A DNA stretch of 64,000 nt from Squalus acanthias (taxonomy: Eukaryota). The first letter of the stretch is position 1, and every line of letters starts with the position of its first letter. A model generated the notes under the pieces. It was not told the origin of the DNA, searched no databases, and worked only from the letters and a program-made list of their open reading frames with translations. Location: the NCBI GenBank assembly GCA_030390025.1, contig CM059431.1:106022001-106086000 (forward strand). The letters run 5' to 3'. Shown piece by piece: positions 9,012-57,728 of the stretch. The position numbers and the translations under genes are program-made.

Positions 9012-9048
9012 AGTTCTGACGAAGGGTCACAGACCTGAAACGTTGACC
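9012..9048 (+). ncRNA. Minimal hammerhead ribozyme motif (PLE family A)
   Basis: agtt-CTGACGA-a-gggtc-aca-gacct-GAAA-c-GTT-gacc: core intact, stem I weakened. Confidence 0.6.
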
Positions 9049-10538: not shown

Positions 10539-10970
10539 GGCACTTTACAGCCTTCTGGACTCAACATCGAGTTCAACAATTTCAGACCATAACCTCTGCC
10601 CCTATCTTTTTTTCTTTTTCTTCTCTCTCTCACATGGCAGCTGTCGATCATCCTGCCATTGCCATTTACACTTCATCTAGAGCCATCTTTTTTTTCTTAA
10701 CTTGTCCCATTACCATCTCCTTTTGCCTTGCACCATCATCCCTTTTGTCTCTTAATCTCTCCTGCCTTCCATCCTATCACAGACCTTCCCTTTTGTTCTT
10801 TCCTCCCCTCCCCCCATTCCCTGCCCCTACACTTGCTTAAAAACCTCTTCCATCTCTCACTTCTTCCAGTTCTGAGGAAGGGTCATCGACCTGAAACATT
10901 AACTCTGTTTCTCTCTCCACAGATGCTGCCTGACCTGCTGAGTATTTCCAGCATTTTCTGTTTTTATTTT
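10539..10970 (+). mobile_element. Penelope-like element 3' end (family A) with ORF C-terminus and hammerhead motif
   Basis: 10539-10592 reads GTLQPSGLNIEFNNFRP*, the TLxPxGLN motif that ends PLE GIY-YIG domains. A pyrimidine-rich UTR follows, then CTGAGGA-agggtcatcgacct-GAAA at 10872-10896. Confidence 0.8.
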
Positions 10971-13095: not shown

Positions 13096-14044
13096 TTTCA
13101 ACTAACTGAGTAACTTCTAAAACAATTTACAGACTCATCTTAAATGATGGCATGGACTCTGTTTCAAAATGTTTGTTTGGCAAACCTGTTTTCATTTGTT
13201 GAAAACCGCACAACCTGATCATATAAATCGTGCCAAAACCATCGTGTTACTTGCGTGTGATGCAACTGTGCTGAAGCTGAAAATATTCTACCTCCCCAAA
13301 CAGACAGTAAAGGTTTGCCAAATGCTTTTCCGTGCAGCCCAATGAAAAGCAAAATCTCGACAACCTCTGCACTCTTGGGGGGGGGGGGGGGGGGGAGGGG
13401 AGGAGAGGGGGGGAGGGGAGGGGGGAGCGTTCTGCTTCATTGACAGGTTCTGAGAACATTGCACGTGGAGGAAGAATTATTCCATGCCTACTCATCTGTG
13501 CGGCAATATAATCCAAGTTCCTTGACATGAATTGAAGTCTGTAGCTGACAGATATCACAATGGTAGCTGTAAATGGCACGGGCCTGTCCTACAATATGTA
13601 TAGGAAATGAAAGCCCATAACATTGCAGTATGAGTCAATCAGTATGAGTCATTCAGTTTGACAACATCACAGTTTAAGGCACACCGTGCAACCAGAGATA
13701 TTTGTTTCTCAATATTTAACCACAACTTCTGTCTTTAAATGTACATAGCATCACCTCGAAATTTGAAAGTAATTTTTCGGCCACAACGGCGAGTGTGTTG
13801 AGGCCTATCTTCTTGATTCCGCAGACTGTACGTGCTGCCAGAGGGAGGTCAGGACCCCAAACATTCCACCGCAGTATAGGCCCCATGGTATAGATGCAAG
13901 CCCAAATCTGGTTCCAGAGCCCGTCCTGATACCGAAACAAAGCGAAGGAGTCTCATACCACTTCACTTTGGAGTCGGCTTTCACGCGTGAGTTACATTCA
14001 AGTGTCAGTGTGAAACCTTGGGGAGTGTGAACGCATTGTAACAG

Positions 14045-14258
14045 TGATGCGGAGATGCCGGTGTTGGACTGGGTGGACAACAGTGAGAAGTCGCACAACA
14101 CCAGGTTATAGTCCAACAGCTTTATTTGAAATCACAAGCTTTCGGAGCGCTGCTCCTTCGTCAGGTGAAGTCTTCACCTGACGAAGGAGCAGCGCTCCGA
14201 AAGCTTGTGATTTCAAATAAAGCTGTTGGACTATAACCTGGTGTTGTGCGACTTCTCA
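14045..14258. mobile_element. Palindromic PLE-derived element (family B) with two inverted hammerhead motifs
   Basis: Perfect 87-bp inverted arms (14084-14170 / 14172-14258) with a 1-nt centre, a ~39-nt unpaired tail, and a 12-bp TSD gcattgtaacag (14033-14044, 14259-14270). Confidence 0.85.
14174..14210 (+). ncRNA. Minimal type-I hammerhead ribozyme motif (mirror copy on the minus strand at 14132-14168)
   Basis: tcac-CTGACGA-a-ggagc-agc-gctcc-GAAA-g-CTT-gtga: stem I tcac/gtga, stem II ggagc/gctcc, palindromic AGCT stem III. Confidence 0.75.
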
Positions 14259-14340
14259 GCATTGTAACAGGTTTTGGTTTAGGATTAATCCACCAATGCA
14301 GCAACTGCACTAAGAACAGCATTTTCCAAACTTCCAGGCT

Positions 14341-16250: not shown

Positions 16251-18224
16251 CAATCAGAGTGTTGCAGTAGGGTTCACTGTTCTGGGGGTAAGGCTAAGAC
16301 ACATTGCTGGAACAGTGTAAATGTACTCTACATCTGGCGAAGTTTGAACCTAACCTGGAAGAGTTTGATGCTGACACTTGATGCCAAATTGGAAAAACTT
16401 CCGATTTCCCACAAGTGTTATCCCTCACCAATAATTCATGCAAAAATTGTCCGAGTCCAAATGACATTCTTTTGCTCAATACATGTCAGCATGTTCAAAT
16501 ACACAATTTTCACCACCCTATCCCTACCATGTGCAGCCAAAGTTACACCCTGATGCTCAAAACTCTCAGGACAGAAATACGCAGGAGCAGGTAGAATGGC
16601 CAATAAAGTGCATATCCCATGGGCCACTTAGAAGGAAGTCTGACACAGAGCATTAAACAATCGCAGAAGACACAGGGAACAGAGGGCACACTGTCATTGT
16701 ACTGTGTGCGTACAGGAAAGGAGAAGGAAGTAAATCAGTAGGATCATTACTTAAAAACTTGTATTCAAAAACATTTTTAAACTGGGAAATAGTTTTTTTT
16801 TCCCCACCCAGCACTTAGAAGCTTTATAAAATCTCAGAGGCCTCTTCAGGTGCTTATCAAGCCTCGGAGGCTTTCTCAGTTCATATTTATTACATCAAAA
16901 CAAATCATGTTACAAATGTGTTACAGGTACCTGCAGAGACTCTGTACAGGTTATTAGATGATGAAGACATGTACACTGCAAGACAGAAAACAGTTTCAAT
17001 ACTTTAGGGTTTTACCTCACGCAAGAGTCAAACAGTAACACTGCGAGAATCTTTGCAGCCTAGAAATTACTGTCAGTGGTGTCATCGTATGCTTAATGGC
17101 TGGTATAAAGTTCGTCTCTTCATTATTTTAATGGACACCTTAAACGATTTATTTTAAATGAGTGAACATCGCCATTAAAATAATAGAGAGGAATATTCAA
17201 AAGAAGCAGGTCAAGTGTTGCTACGATAACATCATCGAGAGTCATTTCTAACCTTAAGTGTTTAATCAATCAACAACAGTAAAAGACCAAACAATGTGCA
17301 CGAGATACATTTGTTTAAATTATTCCGTTCCCATTCTCCTTTTTTTACACTGCCAGTTAATAGCAACCACAGTTCTCAGGCCTGTTACTGCTTCCAGCCT
17401 GCATTTGATTTTCAGAATCTCACCCAACAATTCTGGAATGTTCTCGCATTGTCAGATCGTATCGCTTGTGTGTCGGTGCGAGAAACCTATCGTCCGCTGT
17501 TTTAAATGACCGTTTCGGATTACCCTTCCCCATCACTTGTTATACATCGCGCACGCTGCTTGCCTGAGTAATTTACGCCTGTACTGAGTCACCAGCGGAG
17601 ACCTTTATTTCTCCCCTTGCAAATGGTCAGGATGGGAGTGTTTATCATTTTAGACACTTGCTCCTGTTTATTTTCATGAAAAAAAGTATTTTTCTTTCCT
17701 TTGAAGTTTAATAAGCAAATTCTCTTTTGGTTTCACCAGTTTTTTTGCCCAGTGTTTCATTACATCGCTGTTCAACCTCTCACAACATCCTCACTACTGA
17801 AAAAACAAGGAAAGGCTCACTTAAACCGTCAAACAAAAATTAAACATAGTTTACAGACAGAGCACACACTGGGCAACATGCTGCGCAGTCTCTCCCACTT
17901 GGAGGGCTGTTGTGAAAAAACGATTGCTTTCTGAAGTGTATCCTCTATTATGCTGCCACATGTCACATACACCCCAGTTCACTTTAACGAAGGCAAGCAA
18001 ATCCATGGAAATACCCGTCTCCCTGAGCCAGTATATTTTGAAGATTTTTAACTCACACACTCAAGCTGCTCTTGGCACCACAAAGGAAATTTTAAAAAAG
18101 GTTTTAAAAGCAAAAGTCATCCTGTTTGGGCATCTTTTGGTCCCCCGGATCCTCTTCGCGCTGTTTTCATCCAGCGGGAATGGCTTCCCTGCTCAGGCTA
18201 CCAGTTAAAATTGCAGTCGGGTCT

Positions 18225-18528
18225 CGATGACATCAACGGGACCCAATGACATCAACAGGAATCAATGACATCACCAGGAACCAATGACAGCATCTGGACC
18301 CAATGACATCACCAGGACCCAATGACAGCATCTGGACCCAATGACATCACTGGGAACCAATGACAGCATCTGAACCCAATGACATCACCAAGATCCAATG
18401 ACATCATCGGGAAAGAATGACATCACCCGAAACCAATCACATCACCAGGAATCAATGACGGCATCTGAACCAAATGACATCACCAGGAACCAATGACATC
18501 ACCAGGAACCAATGACAGCATCGAGACT
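18225..18528. repeat. 19-bp minisatellite, about 16 units (caatgacatcaccaggaac)
   Basis: Seen directly; two variants (…acatcacc… and …acagcatc…) often alternate. Confidence 0.9.
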
Positions 18529-19245
18529 CGACGTGCATATATAAAGAAGGACCCCGCTGGCTGTGGGCAGGTGTCCCTGCTGCCTGCTCAGTAGAGCAGG
18601 TTAAAATCTCAAACGTTGGGATCCTGGCAGGTAAGCAACCTGGGCAATTTTAACTGCCCACCCACCTGGTTTCCACCAGACAGGTAAAGTTAAAATCGCC
18701 CCCACTATTTGCTGAACCACAGCTGAAAAAAGAATGCTGAATAAATATGTTTTATTGGTGTTAACATGTTTGTCGATATTATAGGATCAAATATTCGAAT
18801 GAAATGTCTTCGACTGAGGAATATGTCATAAAGCTGTTTTGGTTTTCTAGAAACTAAAGGTCATTCTGCAAAGAATGAAATTAGTTCAGTCATAAAAGTT
18901 ACTAAACATTGGTGTTTGCCCTTCAATAGGAACTTCTCTCAACCCTCGCCAGTTTGTCTTGACTTTCAGAACGCCGCTCCTCTTTCACCTCTCTCCTCAA
19001 CTTAATTTGGTTTTCTTCGTAATAGCTAGGATTAGTGTGTGGTACTCTTGTCCTCACTATCATTAAACTGGCAGCCCTGGCAACTTGGAGCAAATCAATG
19101 TAGTTGCTGGGCCACTATTATTGTTGGTCCACTCTGACCTGAGCTAGGATACCTCTCCAACTTCTAAATACCACAATGTAGATGTGCGGATTCCTTTATT
19201 TTCACTCCAGTTTAGGCTCTTTCTCTGCTCTCTTGAAGATGTACG

Positions 19246-22472: not shown

Positions 22473-22544
22473 ATCTCCTTAGTATTGTGGTTAGTATCCC
22501 CGCCTGTCATGCGGGAGACCGGGGTTCAATTCCCCGATGCAGAG
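22473..22544 (+). pseudogene. tRNA-Asp(GTC) pseudogene
   Basis: ttagtattgtggttagtatccccgcctGTCatgcgggagaccggggttcaattccccga closely follows vertebrate tRNA-Asp. The acceptor stem is disrupted, there are CpG-decay changes, and no T-run terminator. Confidence 0.8.
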
Positions 22545-26868: not shown

Positions 26869-27008
26869 AGTTCTGACGAAAGGTCATCGACCTGAAACGT
26901 TGACCCTGTTTCTCTCTCCGCGGGTGCTGCCTGACCCGCTGAGCATTTTCCAGCATTAATTCCTGTTTCTCCTCCAGCTTTCCAGCATTCGCAGGGTTCT
27001 GCTTTTGT
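26868..27008 (+). mobile_element. PLE family A terminus with intact hammerhead core
   Basis: agtt-CTGACGA-a-aggtc-atc-gacct-GAAA-c-GTT-gacc (26869-26905) followed by the family A tail. Confidence 0.75.
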
Positions 27009-40639: not shown

Positions 40640-41009
40640 ACGGCAGCTGTTGTTGATGATTCTACTATTCCCATTTACACCTCCTCTAGACCCATCTTTT
40701 GTTTCTTTACTTGTCCCATTACCATCTCCATTTGCCTTGCACCACCATCCCTTTTGTCATTTAATCTCTCCTGCCTTCCACCCTATCACAGACCTTCCCT
40801 TTTGTGCTTTCCTCCCCTCCCCGCTTTCCCAGCTTCTGTACTTGCTTAAAACCTGTTACATCTCTAACTTTTTCCAGTTCTGATAAAAGGTCATCGACCT
40901 GAAACGTTAACTGGGTTTCTCTCTCCACAGATGCTGCCTGACCCGCTGAGCATTTCCAGCATTTTCTGTTTTTATTTCAGATTTCTAGCATCCGTGGTGT
41001 TTTGCTTTA
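40640..41009 (+). mobile_element. PLE family A 3' end with mutated hammerhead
   Basis: ccagtt-CTGATaA-a-aggtc-atc-gacct-GAAA-c-GTT-aactgg (40874-40914): 6-bp stem I, core G8 changed to A. Confidence 0.75.
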
Positions 41010-42882: not shown

Positions 42883-44690
42883 TATTCTGGCACTAACACT
42901 CGGCATCTTACGTTGACTTGGCTTGCAGCTCCTGCTCTTCATATTGACATTATTAAATTGGAGGAATATATTGCACAAACATGTGGTAGAAAAGGAACAG
43001 CAACAGTAGGAGACTCCTGAAAAGACTATGCAAATCTCAGGCTTTCGCATAATGATAAATCTTGCCCCATATCGGCAGAGGAATTGCTCCATGCTGAATT
43101 GAGGCTGCATTTTTTTTTAAAAAAGGAGAAACCCTTGATAAATCAATCTCCACAATAAAAAAAGCATTCTAACAAACAGAAATGTAATTTGCTGCGTGCT
43201 TGTTTAAACAGCTGACTGGAGTGTTTATTATGCTTGATTGCTGCCCTTCAGCAACACTTAATACCTTTTTTCAATGAGCTGTCATCTCCGCAGCTACCGG
43301 ATGAGTAAGTTCAGATCATATAAGATCTGACATCGGCAAAATCTCAACCGCAAAACAATTTTATGTAGCGTCGGAGCTCGCATTTAATTTGGAATGACAA
43401 CTGTGTACCACAGCGTGTGTGTGAGATAGCTTCTGAAGCCCACACAACCTCTCCCCAGACTGCAGATGGAGCTGTTGGAGTAAATTTAACACCACTTCGC
43501 AACGACAATTAAAATTTCATGGCAGTAATAGGCAGCAACAGCGCTGCGCTTCCTCCCCACTCCTGTGTTATTTACTCTGGGGGAGGAGCGGGAAAACAGG
43601 TTTTCACAAACATCACAAGCAAGTAAAAAAAAATTGCTGTTTACCGTGTTAAAATTGAATAGTACCAAAACTGGTTGAGTAAATAAAAATGACAGTGGGA
43701 GGGAGGGAGGGAGGAGGGGGGGATATGAAGATATCTGTTACTGTTTGTTCGTCGACAAGCAAGACCATTAAATGGTCATTATATCAAGAATAATTTAATT
43801 GTTAGGCTAAAGCTACTGGATAATTAGGATCCCCTTTGAACACCAAGTGAATATTGCATGCTGTGTTAATATACTTTATTAGCCACAGAGGGACCACAAA
43901 AGTTATTAACTTGTTCATATAAAGCTCTTAAGAGGGGCAAAAGAGATTCCAAACATTTGGCATTAAGCAGCAGTTCTGCATTGTTTCAAGCACTAGCAGT
44001 CAAAAAGATGATTATCAGTTCAACACAGACATGTCATTAAGAACCACCCAAAGATTTGGTCAAGTGGTACCAGACATATCATTTTCTGGGGTGTATAGCT
44101 GTGGTACTAGAGTCGAATTGTAGGCGCCATTCAGTGTCACTCACAAGTGAGGAGTCTGAATGCTTCTGCTGTGCGATATAACCTTGTAGTAGTAGTAGTA
44201 TATTTTTCATCTGTAAGTTAAAGAAAGAAATCAATATATCTTACCGAAAGAAAAATCATTTTTGGCAGTTAACAAACGGTCAAGTTCGTGAAGGCATTCA
44301 GTACTCAAAAGGATCTGTGCAGTTTCATTTCCGTGATGTGTGCCAGTGGTAAAACACTTGCTTTGGGTGTTTGTTTAACTGCAATGTTAAGTAAACCTCT
44401 TTCATAAAGCAAGAGTGTATCGGCATTTTGTTTGGAAACTGTACACTCTCAGTAATTACAAATCCTGAATCCATTTCCCTATTTAGGAAGATTATCTACA
44501 TTATTGGGCAAAATACGCTCATCAAAAGAAAAAAAAAACAAATACCGAGTGACTGATGGACAGAGGCAGAAGCAGAGAAAGAGAGAAAGCACCATGAGTG
44601 GAGAGAATGAGAGCGAGAGAGAGCGAGAGAGAGAGAGACATAGTTGGAGAGAAAGAGAAGGAGCTAACTGCTAAACTAAGATTAGTTCCT

Positions 44691-44910
44691 AACAACAGAA
44701 ACTGCTGGAAACACTCAGCAGGTCAGGCAGCATCGAGGAGAGAGAAACAGAGTCAGCGTTTCGAGTCGGGGACCCTTCGTCAGAATGAAGTGTCCCCGAC
44801 TCGAAACGTTGACTCTGTTTCTCTCTCCTCGATGCTGCCTGACCTGCTAAGTGTTTCCAGCAGTTTCTGTTGTTATTTCAGATTTCCAGCATCCGCAGTA
44901 TTTTGCTATG
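44691..44910. mobile_element. Palindromic PLE family A element
   Basis: ~91-bp inverted arms (44690-44780 / 44785-44875) plus a right-hand tail; probable TSD attagttcctaa (44681) / attatttcctaa (44913); hammerhead-like core on the minus arm. Confidence 0.8.
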
Positions 44911-44964
44911 ATATTATTTCCTAATACATCTGCAAGTGTGCAGGGTATTGAGGTAAAAGATTAC

Positions 44965-45753: not shown

Positions 45754-46244
45754 TACACTTCAGAAGACAAAAAGCTGAAGCATCTGAGACAAGCACACAG
45801 TACTAAATACTGGCAGCGGTACCGAAGATTTATTTTTTGATTACTGGTTTTAGATAAGCTTGTGCCAACGAGAGGGGCAAGTAAAAAAGGTAAAGGAAGC
45901 TGGAGGGATGTGGATGATTAAGGAAATAGAGATGTGGTGGACAGGCACAAGGTATTCGATACCATCGGCTGCCCAATTAGATTCAGTAATTCTATTACGA
46001 CTGAGAAAGAACATCACTCCACCATTGGCTGCCGTGGCTTCAGCTACAGGTTCACGTGATCTGCAAGAGTCAGAGGCAGAGTTTGTGTTCCCTCACTCGG
46101 TAAGTGTGGGATGAAATGGTCTTGTTTAACGTCAGTGCGCAACGCTTCAGGTCAGACAGTCCATTTAGTCTTTTCATTGCAACGGAGAGTGAAATCAATT
46201 CAAACAAATGCTGGGTGCCGTGAACCAGACAGAATGGCGAGGGA

Positions 46245-46455
46245 CACAAAAGCAAAATACTGCGGATGCTGGAAATCTGAAATAAAAAGAGAAAATGCTG
46301 GAAATACCCAGCAGGTCAGGCAGCACCCGTGGAGAGAGAAACAGAGTTTAACGTTTCAGGTCGATGACCCTTCATCTGACGAAGGGTCATCGACCTGAAA
46401 CGTTAACTCTGTTTCTCTCTCCACGGGTGCTGCCTGACCTGCTGGGTATTTCCAG
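46245..46455. mobile_element. Palindromic PLE family A element
   Basis: ~79-bp inverted arms (46298-46376 / 46378-46455) plus a left-hand tail; probable TSD cagaatggcgaggga (46230) / cagaatgaagaggga (46453); CTGACGA...GAAACGTT at 46376-46404. Confidence 0.8.
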
Positions 46456-49015
46456 AATGAAGAGGGAGTTATTTTGCACCAGCCAGACGTAGAATGTTGC
46501 TAAAACCCTTTCTATCGCTCTCCCACCTGCACCACCTTTTCTCTGAACATGGTGGGGGTAGATTTTTCGCTCTGGGTGCAATCGGGAAATTGCGTCCAAA
46601 ATGCGCTTGGAATTGTGCTGCTGCGGTTACGGGTTTCTGCTGTAATTCATCTGTCTAATCGCACACGAACAATCCTCCATGAACCAGCGCAATGGGGCAG
46701 AAGATAATTGTTTCTTTTTTTCGCTCTCGCCGTTTCAAAGTATTCCTCGATGTGTTTAAGAGCGGTAACCTGGTGCAGTTTTATTAATGCAGCTGAAAAT
46801 GGGTTTATCACCAAAAAATAAGCATTTTTAATCAGGGTGTCCAGTCCTCTGCCTGTGAGTAACTTGATTTAAAATCACTGAAAACTACTTAAAAAAACGA
46901 TACTGAACCATTTAATAGTTTAATTGGTGTACACTAGTCCGTTTCTTAGTAAATTAAACATGTTTTGATGTAAAAAGACATTTAAAATGTGTCGACTGGT
47001 GCCTGTGCCCCGAAGACAATGAGCGCGATTTGAAGAGCCTTCCCGAACCAGCTTGATCGACGGAATCTCGCAACGTCCACCTGGGGGGGGGGGGGGGGGG
47101 GGGCGCGGCCAGTTTTGTGGGCGGGGCCTGATCTGGGAGAATCGAATCTTGAACCAGCGTGAAAGATCGCGGGAAATGAGCGCGAGTGGTTTTGGGCGTA
47201 GCTCATTGACGTTTTAAAGTTCCCCGATCCTGCGCGCTAGTTCGGCCAATTCCGCCCACATTGCGCTGACATAACTGGTGGAAACAAACGGAAGCGCGAC
47301 CCTCTTTGGTTTGACAACCAATTTGGAGTCGTTCATCCAGCAAATAAACCACTGATGCCAGGCAAGAGTAGCCCAAATAAGGCAAGTTAAAAAAAAAAGA
47401 AATGGCACCCACGGCAAAAACAAAGAGCGTTGACTTTCGAAGAGTTAAAGGACACAATTAGTTTGCACCGATGAGCTGATTTACAGTTGGGTTGGACAAC
47501 AAATCTTAGCTTGTTTTTAAACGGGGAACAAACAAAAAAGGTTTGCCCAGTGGGCTGCTGAATAAAGCATCATTGTGGACAGCTGAGGAGGAGATTGTGT
47601 ACTTGATCTTTTTTCAGTACTGTCAGCGCCAGTCAGTACTATCACAGCTTCACGCTCTGCACATCACCAATGCTAAATATCACCATTCAGACACTTTTGC
47701 CTTGTCAGAATTGCAATTTAATTCCTGAGGAGCTCGCTGACTGACCTCTCAAAATCCCGAAGCCTTTGATCAAAACGCAAGTGAAATGCAATAAATGGGG
47801 GAACGAGATGGTAGCTAAGCATTAATTGGGGGATGACAACACAAAGTAGCAGAGAGAGTTAATCAATGCACCCAATTCTGCGCCATTATCCTAGAGGAAC
47901 TGCAAACACCATGACATAGAGGCAGCTTTCCCCACCTCAACAAATGCCCCCAAATAGACCACGCAAAGTCCTTCTCCATTTTTGCATGTTACTTAGGATG
48001 GGACGGTGGGGGGGGTGGGGGGGGGGGGGGGGGGAGGAGGAGGGGGGGGGGGTGGCGGTTGGGGGCGGGGGAATGATGATCACAAACTATCTCCTGTTCT
48101 TCGACATGGATACAAAACGACAGGCTTCAGTTCGAGGCTTTCTGAAGCTGTCATTTCTAAAGTAGCCATTTCTGCTCCAGAACAAAGGACACTTTGCCAT
48201 CCTTCGAAATGATGCTAATCTTTCGGGACATGCCTTTTCAAAAAAAAAGATGAAATCACCATCGGAGTAGAGCACTGTTCACCCTCCACAGAGAAAATGA
48301 CCTCGGAATGGGAATCTTATCAAGACAAACAGATCTTTTGTGCATTCAGTATTACATTTAAAGCAAAAAGAAGGCAATTTGAGGTCTTGCTTGACAGCGC
48401 TGAACGCACTGCTGTTGATCCCATGCTGTGTGAGTGGCTGAAAATTACTGAATGTGGATAAACTAATAGTGCAGAGGTTACAAATGGACCCTTGCACCCG
48501 TTCCATGTAGCTTAGTCGCAGAACCGATCTACCTGTCATAACAATGCTTTGCACACAAAGATAAACACTTGTTGAAAGCACTTCACTCCTTAGGGGACAT
48601 ACTTAGCATCGTCAGGGCATGAGACAAGGCTATCGGTATGGTAACCACCATAGCCCCCCCCCCCCCCCGCCAATATTTAAATGCTATGGAGTTTATTATT
48701 CCCACTAGAGCTCACTGCCCAACAAATGAAGCCATTATCCACCATTTTACGCTGATCCAATCTGTCGATATTGTAAATGCAAAAAAAATCTTCACAGTAA
48801 GTGCAGTTAATCAGGAAATGTTCAGACAGAGGAGCACAGGCAACCGAGATTGGGATTCCATAAAGGACTTGTCTGAATACACCATGGGTTTTTTAATGCT
48901 ATGCTAGCCAACCACAGTGGTGATATTGTTCTGGTCCTTATGTAATTGGCAGATTTCCTGAATCTATGCAAGCTTTATTGCAAGTTCCACTACTTAGTCA
49001 AACGTGAAGCCTATT

Positions 49016-55850: not shown

Positions 55851-55938
55851 AACAACAGAAAATGCTGGAAACACTCAGCAGGTTAGGCAGCATCGGGCAG
55901 AGAGAAACAGAGTTAACGTTTCAGGTTGATGACCCTTC
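55851..55938 (-). mobile_element. PLE family A terminus, hammerhead truncated
   Basis: Minus strand gaagggtcatcaacctgaaacgttaactctg...; the CTGA part is missing. Confidence 0.7.
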
Positions 55939-55945
55939 TATATCT

Positions 55946-56610: not shown

Positions 56611-57256
56611 TGGTAGTCCATTCTATTCTGGTCTTTGCGGTTCTGCCAGTCAGTACTGGCATTTGTAAGGCTGTGTTTGAGCACTCGAAGCTTCCCAAGT
56701 CTAATTAAACAACACTGGCTTTACTGGCAGGTTTGAGAGCATCATACTTTCATCGATACAGAGAGATTAAAAATCCATATAACAACCTTAAGCGTAGGGG
56801 AATGTCAGCCAGTAACATTTCACTTCAAACTGAATATTGATTTGTGCTCACAGTATTGTTTAATAAGGCTTAATTCGAGCAGCTGAGCCAATGAGGCTGC
56901 TGCTATAATTATGAACACGAATACAGTGGCCAGTATTATACAGTGTCCGTGGCTCTTTCTGCAATGTATTGCGGAATTTGCATAGCACTTGTCGATGCTG
57001 AGTGATGGAAGCAATTTGGGGTCAGTATCAATTGAGAAGGCTAAAGTAGAAAAAGACATGCTGTAAATGCAAGCACAAACTCGGGATGGGAGCGTAACCA
57101 CCATTTAAAGGGGAAGGGATAATTAAAGGGGAGTGTCAGACTAGTTAGAGGAGCGACAACCTGTTGGAGGCAGATACTTCCTGGTCCACGCCCTGAAACC
57201 TACGCCATGACACGAAGTGGAACACCCGCCCATTCTCCACTACCTGATTTACAGTG

Positions 57257-57581
57257 GTCATGATGCGGCGATGCCGGTGTTGGACTGGGGTGGACAAAAA
57301 TTAGAAGTCGCACAACACCAGGTTATAGTCCAACAGTTTTATTTAAAATTACGAGCTTTCGGAGCGCTGCTCCTTCGTCAGGTAAAGGTACAGTGAGGGA
57401 ATCGATTACACAGTATATATACACAGTATATCTCTGCAGACAAATTGTTCTCTGTGTATATATACTGTGTAATAGATTCCCTCACTGTACCTTTACCTGA
57501 AGAAGGAGCAGCGCTCCGAAAGCTCGTAATTTTAAATAAAACTGTTGGACTATAACCTGGTGTTGTGCGACTTCTCATTTT
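57257..57581. mobile_element. Palindromic PLE family B element with two inverted hammerhead motifs
   Basis: ~132-bp arms (57295-57426 / 57452-57583, about 3 mismatches), 25-nt spacer, 12-bp TSD tgatttacagtg (57245-57256, 57582-57593). Confidence 0.85.
57349..57385 (-). ncRNA. Minimal type-I hammerhead ribozyme motif (mirror copy on the plus strand at 57493-57529)
   Basis: ttac-CTGACGA-a-ggagc-agc-gctcc-GAAA-g-CTC-gtaa; stem I ttac/gtaa covaries with tcac/gtga of the 14-kb copy. Confidence 0.75.
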
Positions 57582-57728
57582 TGATTTACAGTGTTACAAT
57601 GGGGAACTGCCAGTGGAAAATATAGAATGGTATCTCATCACAGTATGACCTAGAGACCTTACCTGGCTTTTCAATGATTACTTCACTTCCAGAAATAAAT
57701 ATAAATATAGATATATGTGTATGTAATG

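Follow-up and report, generated by a model that had tools for sequence, protein, structure and literature searches.

Minimal hammerhead ribozymes (min-HHRs) are an established feature of Penelope-like elements (PLEs): pairs of such motifs, lying on opposite strands 100-700 bp apart and supported by covariation, were described in metazoan PLEs, and a single motif did not cleave while dimers cleaved at low levels (Cervera and De la Pena 2014, PMC4209133). Inverted 5'-truncated PLE copies with a one-sided tail of 30-40 bp, a target-site duplication (TSD) and palindromes at their junctions are standard as well (PMC3846280, PMC8557442). Both the minimal hammerhead and the hairpin layout have already been described for PLEs (2013-2021). 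For PAc, a Poseidon-type element of Anolis carolinensis, the tail was traced to two internal starts of reverse transcription, and the PAc protein was found to cut and extend both target strands with uncleaved RNA as its substrate (Frangieh et al. 2024, PMC11167929). Hammerhead-bearing, non-autonomous elements related to PLE pseudo-LTRs (pLTRs), the non-LTR retrozymes, were reported in one chondrichthyan genome (bioRxiv 10.64898/2026.07.22.740005). The origin of the tandem and inverted PLE structures has been called undefined (PMC8557442), and the role of the PLE ribozyme was left open in the PAc study (PMC11167929).

Within the 64,000-nt stretch of DNA analysed here (the window), a 349-bp insertion at positions 57245-57593 consists of two head-to-head repeat ends set in 12-bp TSDs (Table 1). 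It is highly probable that this insertion is a heavily 5'-truncated PLE with a predicted min-HHR in each arm, and that pairing in the ribozyme was selected in active parents of the element rather than at this locus. The insertion belongs to one of two hammerhead-bearing families in the window, here called family B. A literature search on shark or chondrichthyan Penelope elements and hammerheads, covering open papers and a minority of subscription papers, found no paper devoted to this family, and the word 'shark' does not occur in the one searchable supplement of PMC4209133.

Table 1. Positions of the 57-kb insertion, of its family B relative and of the family A copies in the window.
Feature	Position	Strand	Details and evidence
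Left TSD, 12 bp	57245-57256	+	Exact match to 57582-57593; 0/3000 controls
One-sided 38-nt "tail" of the putative PLE end	57257-57294	-	Missing from right arm; similar end in L002
Left (tailed) arm, probable 5'-truncated pLTR piece	57295-57426	-	Inverted repeat; element sense on minus strand
Candidate poly(A) signal AATAAA, just 3' of the motif	57338-57343	-	Sequence; also in 14-kb copy, L001 and L002
Predicted hammerhead motif, minimal type I	57349-57385	-	Motif scan, ten-motif alignment, pair counts, folding
25-nt centre: 2 nt of junction and 23 nt continuing the right arm upstream, in parent sense	57427-57451	+	
Right (tail-less) arm	57452-57583	+	Element sense on plus strand; last 2 nt common with TSD
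Second predicted hammerhead motif, N7 = A (57501)	57493-57529	+	Motif scan
Right TSD, 12 bp	57582-57593	+	Exact match to 57245-57256
14-kb copy, same family (B)	14033-14270		TSDs 14033-14044 and 14259-14270; 39-nt tail 14045-14083
14-kb arms	14084-14170, 14172-14258		87 nt, 0 mismatches; 1-nt centre 14171
14-kb motifs	14132-14168, 14174-14210	-, +	
Family A motifs, unpaired single copies (n = 4)	9012-9048, 10868-10904, 26869-26905, 40876-40912	+	
Family A motifs of two hairpins and of a copy cut within its core	44751-44787, 46372-46408, 55911-55945	-, +, -	
Family A palindrome	44682-44924		Tail right; ~11-bp TSD, 1 mismatch; the 6-nt centre extends the left arm, which has no tail
Family A palindrome	46230-46467		Tail left; ~15-bp TSD, 2 mismatches; the 1-nt centre extends the right arm, which has no tail

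The anatomy of the insertion is largely as an earlier note on this DNA had described it. The duplicated 12-bp target site (TGATTTACAGTG) is the longest exact repeat of the flanks, and none of the control window pairs at the same spacing had 12 nt or more in common; the two arms, given there as about 132 bp around a 25-nt spacer, are each exactly 132 nt long. The insertion is lopsided, with the left arm reaching 38 nt further than the right. The note had also held that one arm varies only at the free N7 position, which is true inside the motif, where N7 is the sole change, and fails over the full arm, where 3 of the 132 positions are mismatched (57302/57576, 57377/57501 and 57404/57474). As one of three arm mismatches, the N7 difference is no evidence by itself; the A at N7 in the right arm may be a change after insertion, an assembly error in the hairpin, or an N7 = A allele, which makes up 2-11% of the family depth in the sequencing data described below. 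The right-arm differences at 57474 and 57501 are both C-to-A and both at CpG sites, and may reflect damage or consensus errors in the hairpin.

Contigs of four public sequencing runs (X1, X3, X6 and X9), out of 20 listed, were aligned to the left half of the locus (56950-57451, with ~55% of X1 read), and 7525, 12438, 1322 and 2078 family B contigs aligned in the four runs. Contigs from X1 and X3 join the left flank contiguously to the tail (56950-57282), which places the insertion in both data sets of organism A; a contig of X6 ends at 57240, and X9 does not cover the flank. The left flank contains a short repeated stretch at 57103-57140, with a depth in X1 of ~50 times that of the flank, and in X1 as in X3 a single contig joins this stretch to the short end of the element. 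In all four runs contigs bridge from the motif to ~57420-57426. In other copies, the part of the centre at 57429-57451 is preceded by a common upstream sequence, and in one X3 contig the left arm runs on into the complement of the spacer end.

On the sense strand of the element the motif reads, in order, stem I, CUGANGA, an extra A, stem II, GAAA, GCU with the cleavage base, and stem I, which is the type I order and the core (CUGANGA ... GAAA ... UH) of the min-HHRs of PLEs. In the minus-strand motif of the 57-kb insertion, stem I is UUAC/GUAA, the core is CUGACGA, stem II has 5 bp and a 3-nt loop, and the triplet is CUC, with the predicted cut after 57353. The A at 57374 and the pair G57373-C57361 agree with details given for PLE min-HHRs (PMC4209133), and helix III consists of the self-complementary AGCU alone, which is the palindromic, loopless 15.2-16.2 arrangement of that class. 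As in that class, helix I is short, helix II is paired and compensatory changes occur, though from few independent events. The motif thus has the minimal type I design of the min-HHRs in PLE pLTRs, and differs from the Schistosoma families described in PMC4209133 by its helix II of 5 bp, where theirs has 7-8 bp.

Folding of the motif recovered stems I and II, with an energy within the range of shuffled sequences (z of -0.7 to -1.2). Unconstrained co-folding of two 37-mers did not recover the dimeric hammerhead, and the Rfam hammerhead models gave no match anywhere in the window at E values up to 1. Rfam miRNA models did match over the palindrome centre (mir-4536, 46.7 bits against a gathering score of 76); we rejected these matches as an effect of any long hairpin. 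As stem III is loopless, the monomer is predicted not to cleave, and in the parent the ribozyme would act as a dimer held together by the self-complementary AGCU, or would be assisted by the PLE protein.

The assignment to PLEs draws on the architecture and on relatives in metagenomes. The one-sided tails of the two family B copies (38 and 39 nt) fall within the 30-40 bp typical of PLEs and occur at one end only, the family has two element ends (57259/57260 and near 57303), and the 57-kb insertion is an inverted, 5'-truncated pLTR-like copy, head to head and within a TSD. A tblastn search of the window with the L002 frame (best E 0.18) gave no open reading frame (ORF) for a PLE reverse transcriptase (RT) or endonuclease, at the insertion or elsewhere. 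A pattern scan of metagenomes returned a near-identical motif at two loci, on contigs L001 and L002, and the same kind of scan returned none in viral contigs (two scans) and none in prokaryote genomes. In L002 a 177-aa frame lies upstream of the motif; its nearest Atlas clusters consist of eukaryotic proteins of the GIY-YIG type (score 0.97), with Pfam PF01541 on 23-34% of the members of those clusters. A direct Pfam scan of this frame returned no family, and a search of the PDB gave two matches, neither with a stretch passing on its own. The 3' end of L002 after the motif aligns with the end of the 57-kb element, tail included; any link of the 57-kb end to a full element is thus indirect. Both metagenome contigs are marine and carry near-identical PLE-like ends; by eye, the upstream part of L001 can be read on the opposite strand as an RT-like frame, L002 contains part of its start a second time, inverted, and both contigs may be inverted PLE arrangements.

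Compared with described elements, the insertion shares with the Pen2a-type inverted-pLTR insertions of Adineta the head-to-head truncated copy, the one-sided tail, the TSD and the junction palindrome (PMC3846280), but is a pLTR end alone, with no ORF and no direct pLTR. The TSDs of the window palindromes (11-15 bp) are longer than those of the rotifer PLE examples (8-10 bp; PMC3846280). As in PAc, two element ends ~40 nt apart define the tail, and the hammerhead is retained uncleaved in inserted copies. In PAc, however, the ORF starts inside the hammerhead and reverse transcription starts 111-118 nt into the ORF (PMC11167929), whereas the 57-kb element has its sole candidate ATG at the tail end, ~90 nt 3' of the motif; this ATG (57261-57259, inside the 38-nt tail) may be the start of the parent ORF, and the AATAAA downstream of the motif is a possible poly(A) signal. 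The element resembles the non-LTR retrozymes in being non-autonomous, hammerhead-bearing and related to PLE pLTRs. These are, however, head-to-tail tandem repeats (bioRxiv 10.64898/2026.07.22.740005), and assignment to them was rejected: at least two head-to-tail hammerhead units are required, while the 57-kb insertion is a single head-to-head structure with a TSD and the window copies lie head to head.

The case for selection on the ribozyme had been built on a comparison with the sole other family B relative in the window, at 14033-14270. This copy is an independent insertion, as had been proposed, with another 12-bp TSD, another centre and 87-nt arms. An alignment of 93 bases shows 8 differences between it and the left 57-kb arm, 3 of them inside the motif (57384, 57350 and 57353 among 37 nt). 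All three are compatible with the structure, in agreement with the original proposal: 57384 and 57350 form one compensatory pair in stem I, C-G in the 14-kb copy and U-A here, and the cleavage triplet changes from CUU to CUC at 57353. When three changes were placed at random, all were compatible and included a Watson-Crick swap in 0.5-1.5% of the trials, a post hoc figure. The two-copy comparison therefore amounts to a single compensatory event, picked afterwards, and is suggestive.

A broader comparison includes family A, the second hammerhead-bearing family, whose motifs have the same length, different stems and the palindrome ACGU. Among its members, the 10.9- and 40.9-kb copies carry damaged motifs (a mismatch in 15.2-16.2; loss of G8). 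We aligned ten motifs, nine from the window and that of L001, representing two families and one outside relative. The 5'-truncated family A motifs at 46350-46376, 44778-44814 and 55911-55945 were left out, as were the 14-kb right arm and L002, which are identical to other rows; two rows in which the 5' strand of stem I is cut by the junction (44783, 46376) were kept. In this alignment 92% of the cells are paired (82.5% in helix I, 100% in helix II), and both sides have changed in 8 of the 11 pairs, across all three helices, including 4/4 pairs in helix I and 3/5 in helix II. The covariation score is 0.66, as compared with 0.29 in shuffled alignments and at most 0.13 when the partners were slid, and the count of both-sided pairs was matched in 43 of 500 shuffles. 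Compensatory swaps separate family A from family B in all three stems, among them the both-sided swap in the 15.2-16.2 palindrome, AGCU in family B and ACGU in most family A copies. These pair counts, as read from the aligned sequences, reflect few events, namely two families and one outsider.

The contigs of the four runs provide a view of variation within family B. With a threshold of at least 5% of depth, and with alignments clipped upstream of 57385, which takes 57384, the partner of 57350, out of the tally, 7 of the 37 motif positions (57349-57385) are variable: the whole of loop II (three bases), N7, H17 and two bases of stem I. Across the 23 positions of the core, stem II and stem III, none carries a variant at this threshold in the four runs (hypergeometric p ~3e-4, with sites treated as independent), and three of the variable sites touch CpGs. 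The GUAA allele of stem I accounts for 41-63% of depth at 57350 in each of the four runs; it is therefore a subfamily allele and not private to the 57-kb copy, and both stem I forms (UUAC/GUAA and UCAC/GUGA) represent major subfamilies. The variant at 57385 makes up 75% of the clipped depth in X1 and 6-20% elsewhere; a partner variant at 57349 would fall under the 5% threshold, and none is listed. Among loose ends behind 57365 we observed a further subfamily, in which an A-U pair of stem II is replaced by G-U, with a 4-nt loop.

Together, the pair counts (8/11) and the family-wide pattern of variable sites support the suggestion that the hammerhead was under selection in the parent elements, and, at the level of sequence, are stronger support for it than the two-copy comparison. 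We consider it very unlikely that the motif is a dead relic in which the stem I swap arose by chance or mutation bias, with no selection on structure in recent parents. Such a reading can point to the single compensatory event between the two cited copies, both of whose changes are transitions, and to PAc, where hammerhead mutants still insert in vitro and where no RNA-seq ends were found at the cleavage site (PMC11167929), but it sits poorly with a core, stem II and stem III that show no variant at the 5% threshold while loop II, N7 and H17 do, and with the stem-by-stem swaps between families A and B. Any such selection would have acted in tandem parent elements and not in the 57-kb stub. Each strand of the insertion carries a single sense motif together with the complete complement of that motif, and an arm-to-arm hairpin of -236 kcal/mol is predicted for read-through RNA. 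Given one sense copy per strand and this long predicted hairpin, the motifs of the stub are likely inert.

Loose ends in the contigs mark the two ends of the family. Among the matches listed, those at 57259/57260 number at least 39 and at least 51 contigs in X1 and at least 50 in X3, and those at 57303 at least 64 in X1 and at least 72 in X3; the latter end is likely clipped a few bases early by the private base 57302 of the 57-kb copy. Contig joints linking 57298-57303 to 57419-57421 are same-strand and head-to-tail; in these tandem joints one unit stops at the tail-less site and the next starts at a TATA-like run. Fold-back joints are scarce, with two opposite-strand joints in X1 and one further centre in X3.

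How the hairpins form can be approached from the four palindromes of the window (14, 44.7, 46.3 and 57.4 kb). Tabulating their fold-back points and TSDs, as the earlier note had suggested, gave four different centres and TSDs of 12, ~11, ~15 and 12 bp, and a fifth centre from the same subfamily occurs in one X3 contig, bearing out the idea that a palindrome forms afresh at each insertion. Of the routes named there, snap-back or template switch, fresh formation stands, but a plain single snap-back cannot make the 57-kb copy: the tail is present in one arm only and the spacer continues only the other. Simple copying of one arm from its partner therefore does not account for the structure, which calls for two primed strands. 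The join at 57427-57429 is consistent with microhomology over a short TA, and a 7-nt direct repeat (57407 and 57420) lies next to it. The centre extends the arm without a tail in every one of the four hairpins (1, 6, 1 and 23 of 25 nt, two of these cases resting on a single T), for which the one-sided chance is 1 in 16, and in all four the tailed arm is the more 5'-truncated one. The arms of the four palindromes stop within 1, 1, 6 and 25 nt of each other, and the 57-kb arms have 5 variants in common relative to the 14-kb copy and differ at 2 positions over the same stretch; the close stops and the common variants argue against two independent truncations.

We prefer a model of fold-back and capture, to which we assign about an even chance. 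By extension from studies of PLEs elsewhere, both strands of the target would be cut by the endonuclease, staggered by 12 nt, and uncleaved RNA would be reverse transcribed from two internal starts, one at the tail end and one ~40 nt upstream of it; one of the cDNAs would abort early. The cDNA from the tail-less start would then fold back and copy itself, and the sense strand made in this way would pair with the second cDNA, primed from the tail end on the opposite strand of the target. A general rule can be drawn from this, namely that the unpaired centre of PLE hairpins always continues the tail-less arm, with the tail-less cDNA folding back and the tail-end cDNA capturing the copy, such that a tailed palindrome within a TSD results from a single RNA. 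The rule is tentative and we hold it to be doubtful as a generality; if true, it would settle a sequence of steps on which the PLE literature is undecided. No statement of it was found in a literature search confined to a minority of subscription papers, open papers and part of the supplements.

The other half of the probability falls to routes that keep the PLE identity and form the hairpin differently. Two independently primed cDNAs, from twin priming of a protein dimer on two RNAs, could be end-joined with no fold-back, and such joining would supply the two primed strands that are called for by a tail and a spacer belonging to different arms. Both target strands are extended by the PAc protein, for which a dimer is predicted (PMC11167929), and the A at N7 of the right arm matches an allele at ~10% depth in organism A, as two templates could give. 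We nevertheless regard end-joining as rather unlikely, since stops as close as 1, 1, 6 and 25 nt are rarely expected from independent truncation, the 57-kb arms share more variants than they differ by, and the tail-less arm has the longer 5' reach in every copy. In a search on Penelope twin priming, no title or abstract dealt with the mechanism of PLEs. Self-priming on an antisense template has been proposed for palindromes at head-to-head PLE junctions (Arkhipova et al. 2013, PMC3846280, the sole PLE-focused paper that our search on head-to-head or inverted self-priming returned). At the 57-kb locus the TATA-like run can be read both ways at 57414-57421. Long palindromes are also prone to central deletion, which counts in favour of the related possibility that a longer perfect palindrome was trimmed later at its centre. 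Trimming should, however, remove either side equally, as opposed to the one-sided pattern of 4/4 centres, and neither antisense self-priming nor trimming explains by itself a tail on one arm only; we consider this pair of routes unlikely. A different identity, a foldback MITE copied by a DNA transposase from one master palindrome, with the hammerhead look inherited or incidental, is hardly tenable. The long inverted arms, the TSD and the lack of an ORF are what such an element would have. Foldback elements and MITEs are defined by terminal inverted repeats flush with the TSD and by a uniform centre and TSD length, whereas here the centre differs in every copy, a 38-39-nt extension lies outside the inverted repeat and the TSDs vary from 11 to 15 bp. 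Single non-palindromic family A copies in the window and the same-strand tandem joints in the contigs also speak against it. A single master MITE, which the earlier note had doubted, was rejected on the four different centres.

Taken alone, the 57-kb insertion matters little, adding one more PLE family with the known combination of a min-HHR and inverted ends. The fold-back and capture model and the proposed selection on the ribozyme nevertheless find useful material here: the family is young and very abundant, its UUAC/GUAA and UCAC/GUGA subfamilies would allow a linkage test of ribozyme selection, and its many hairpins with readable centres would allow a count-based test of how the hairpins are made. 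Elsewhere in the window we observed a tandem array of ~370 bp with a 19-bp unit (18189-18560) and, on the plus strand at 22474-22544, a tRNA-like match above the Rfam gathering score (38.7 bits), which may be the head of a SINE or a pseudogene of a tRNA.
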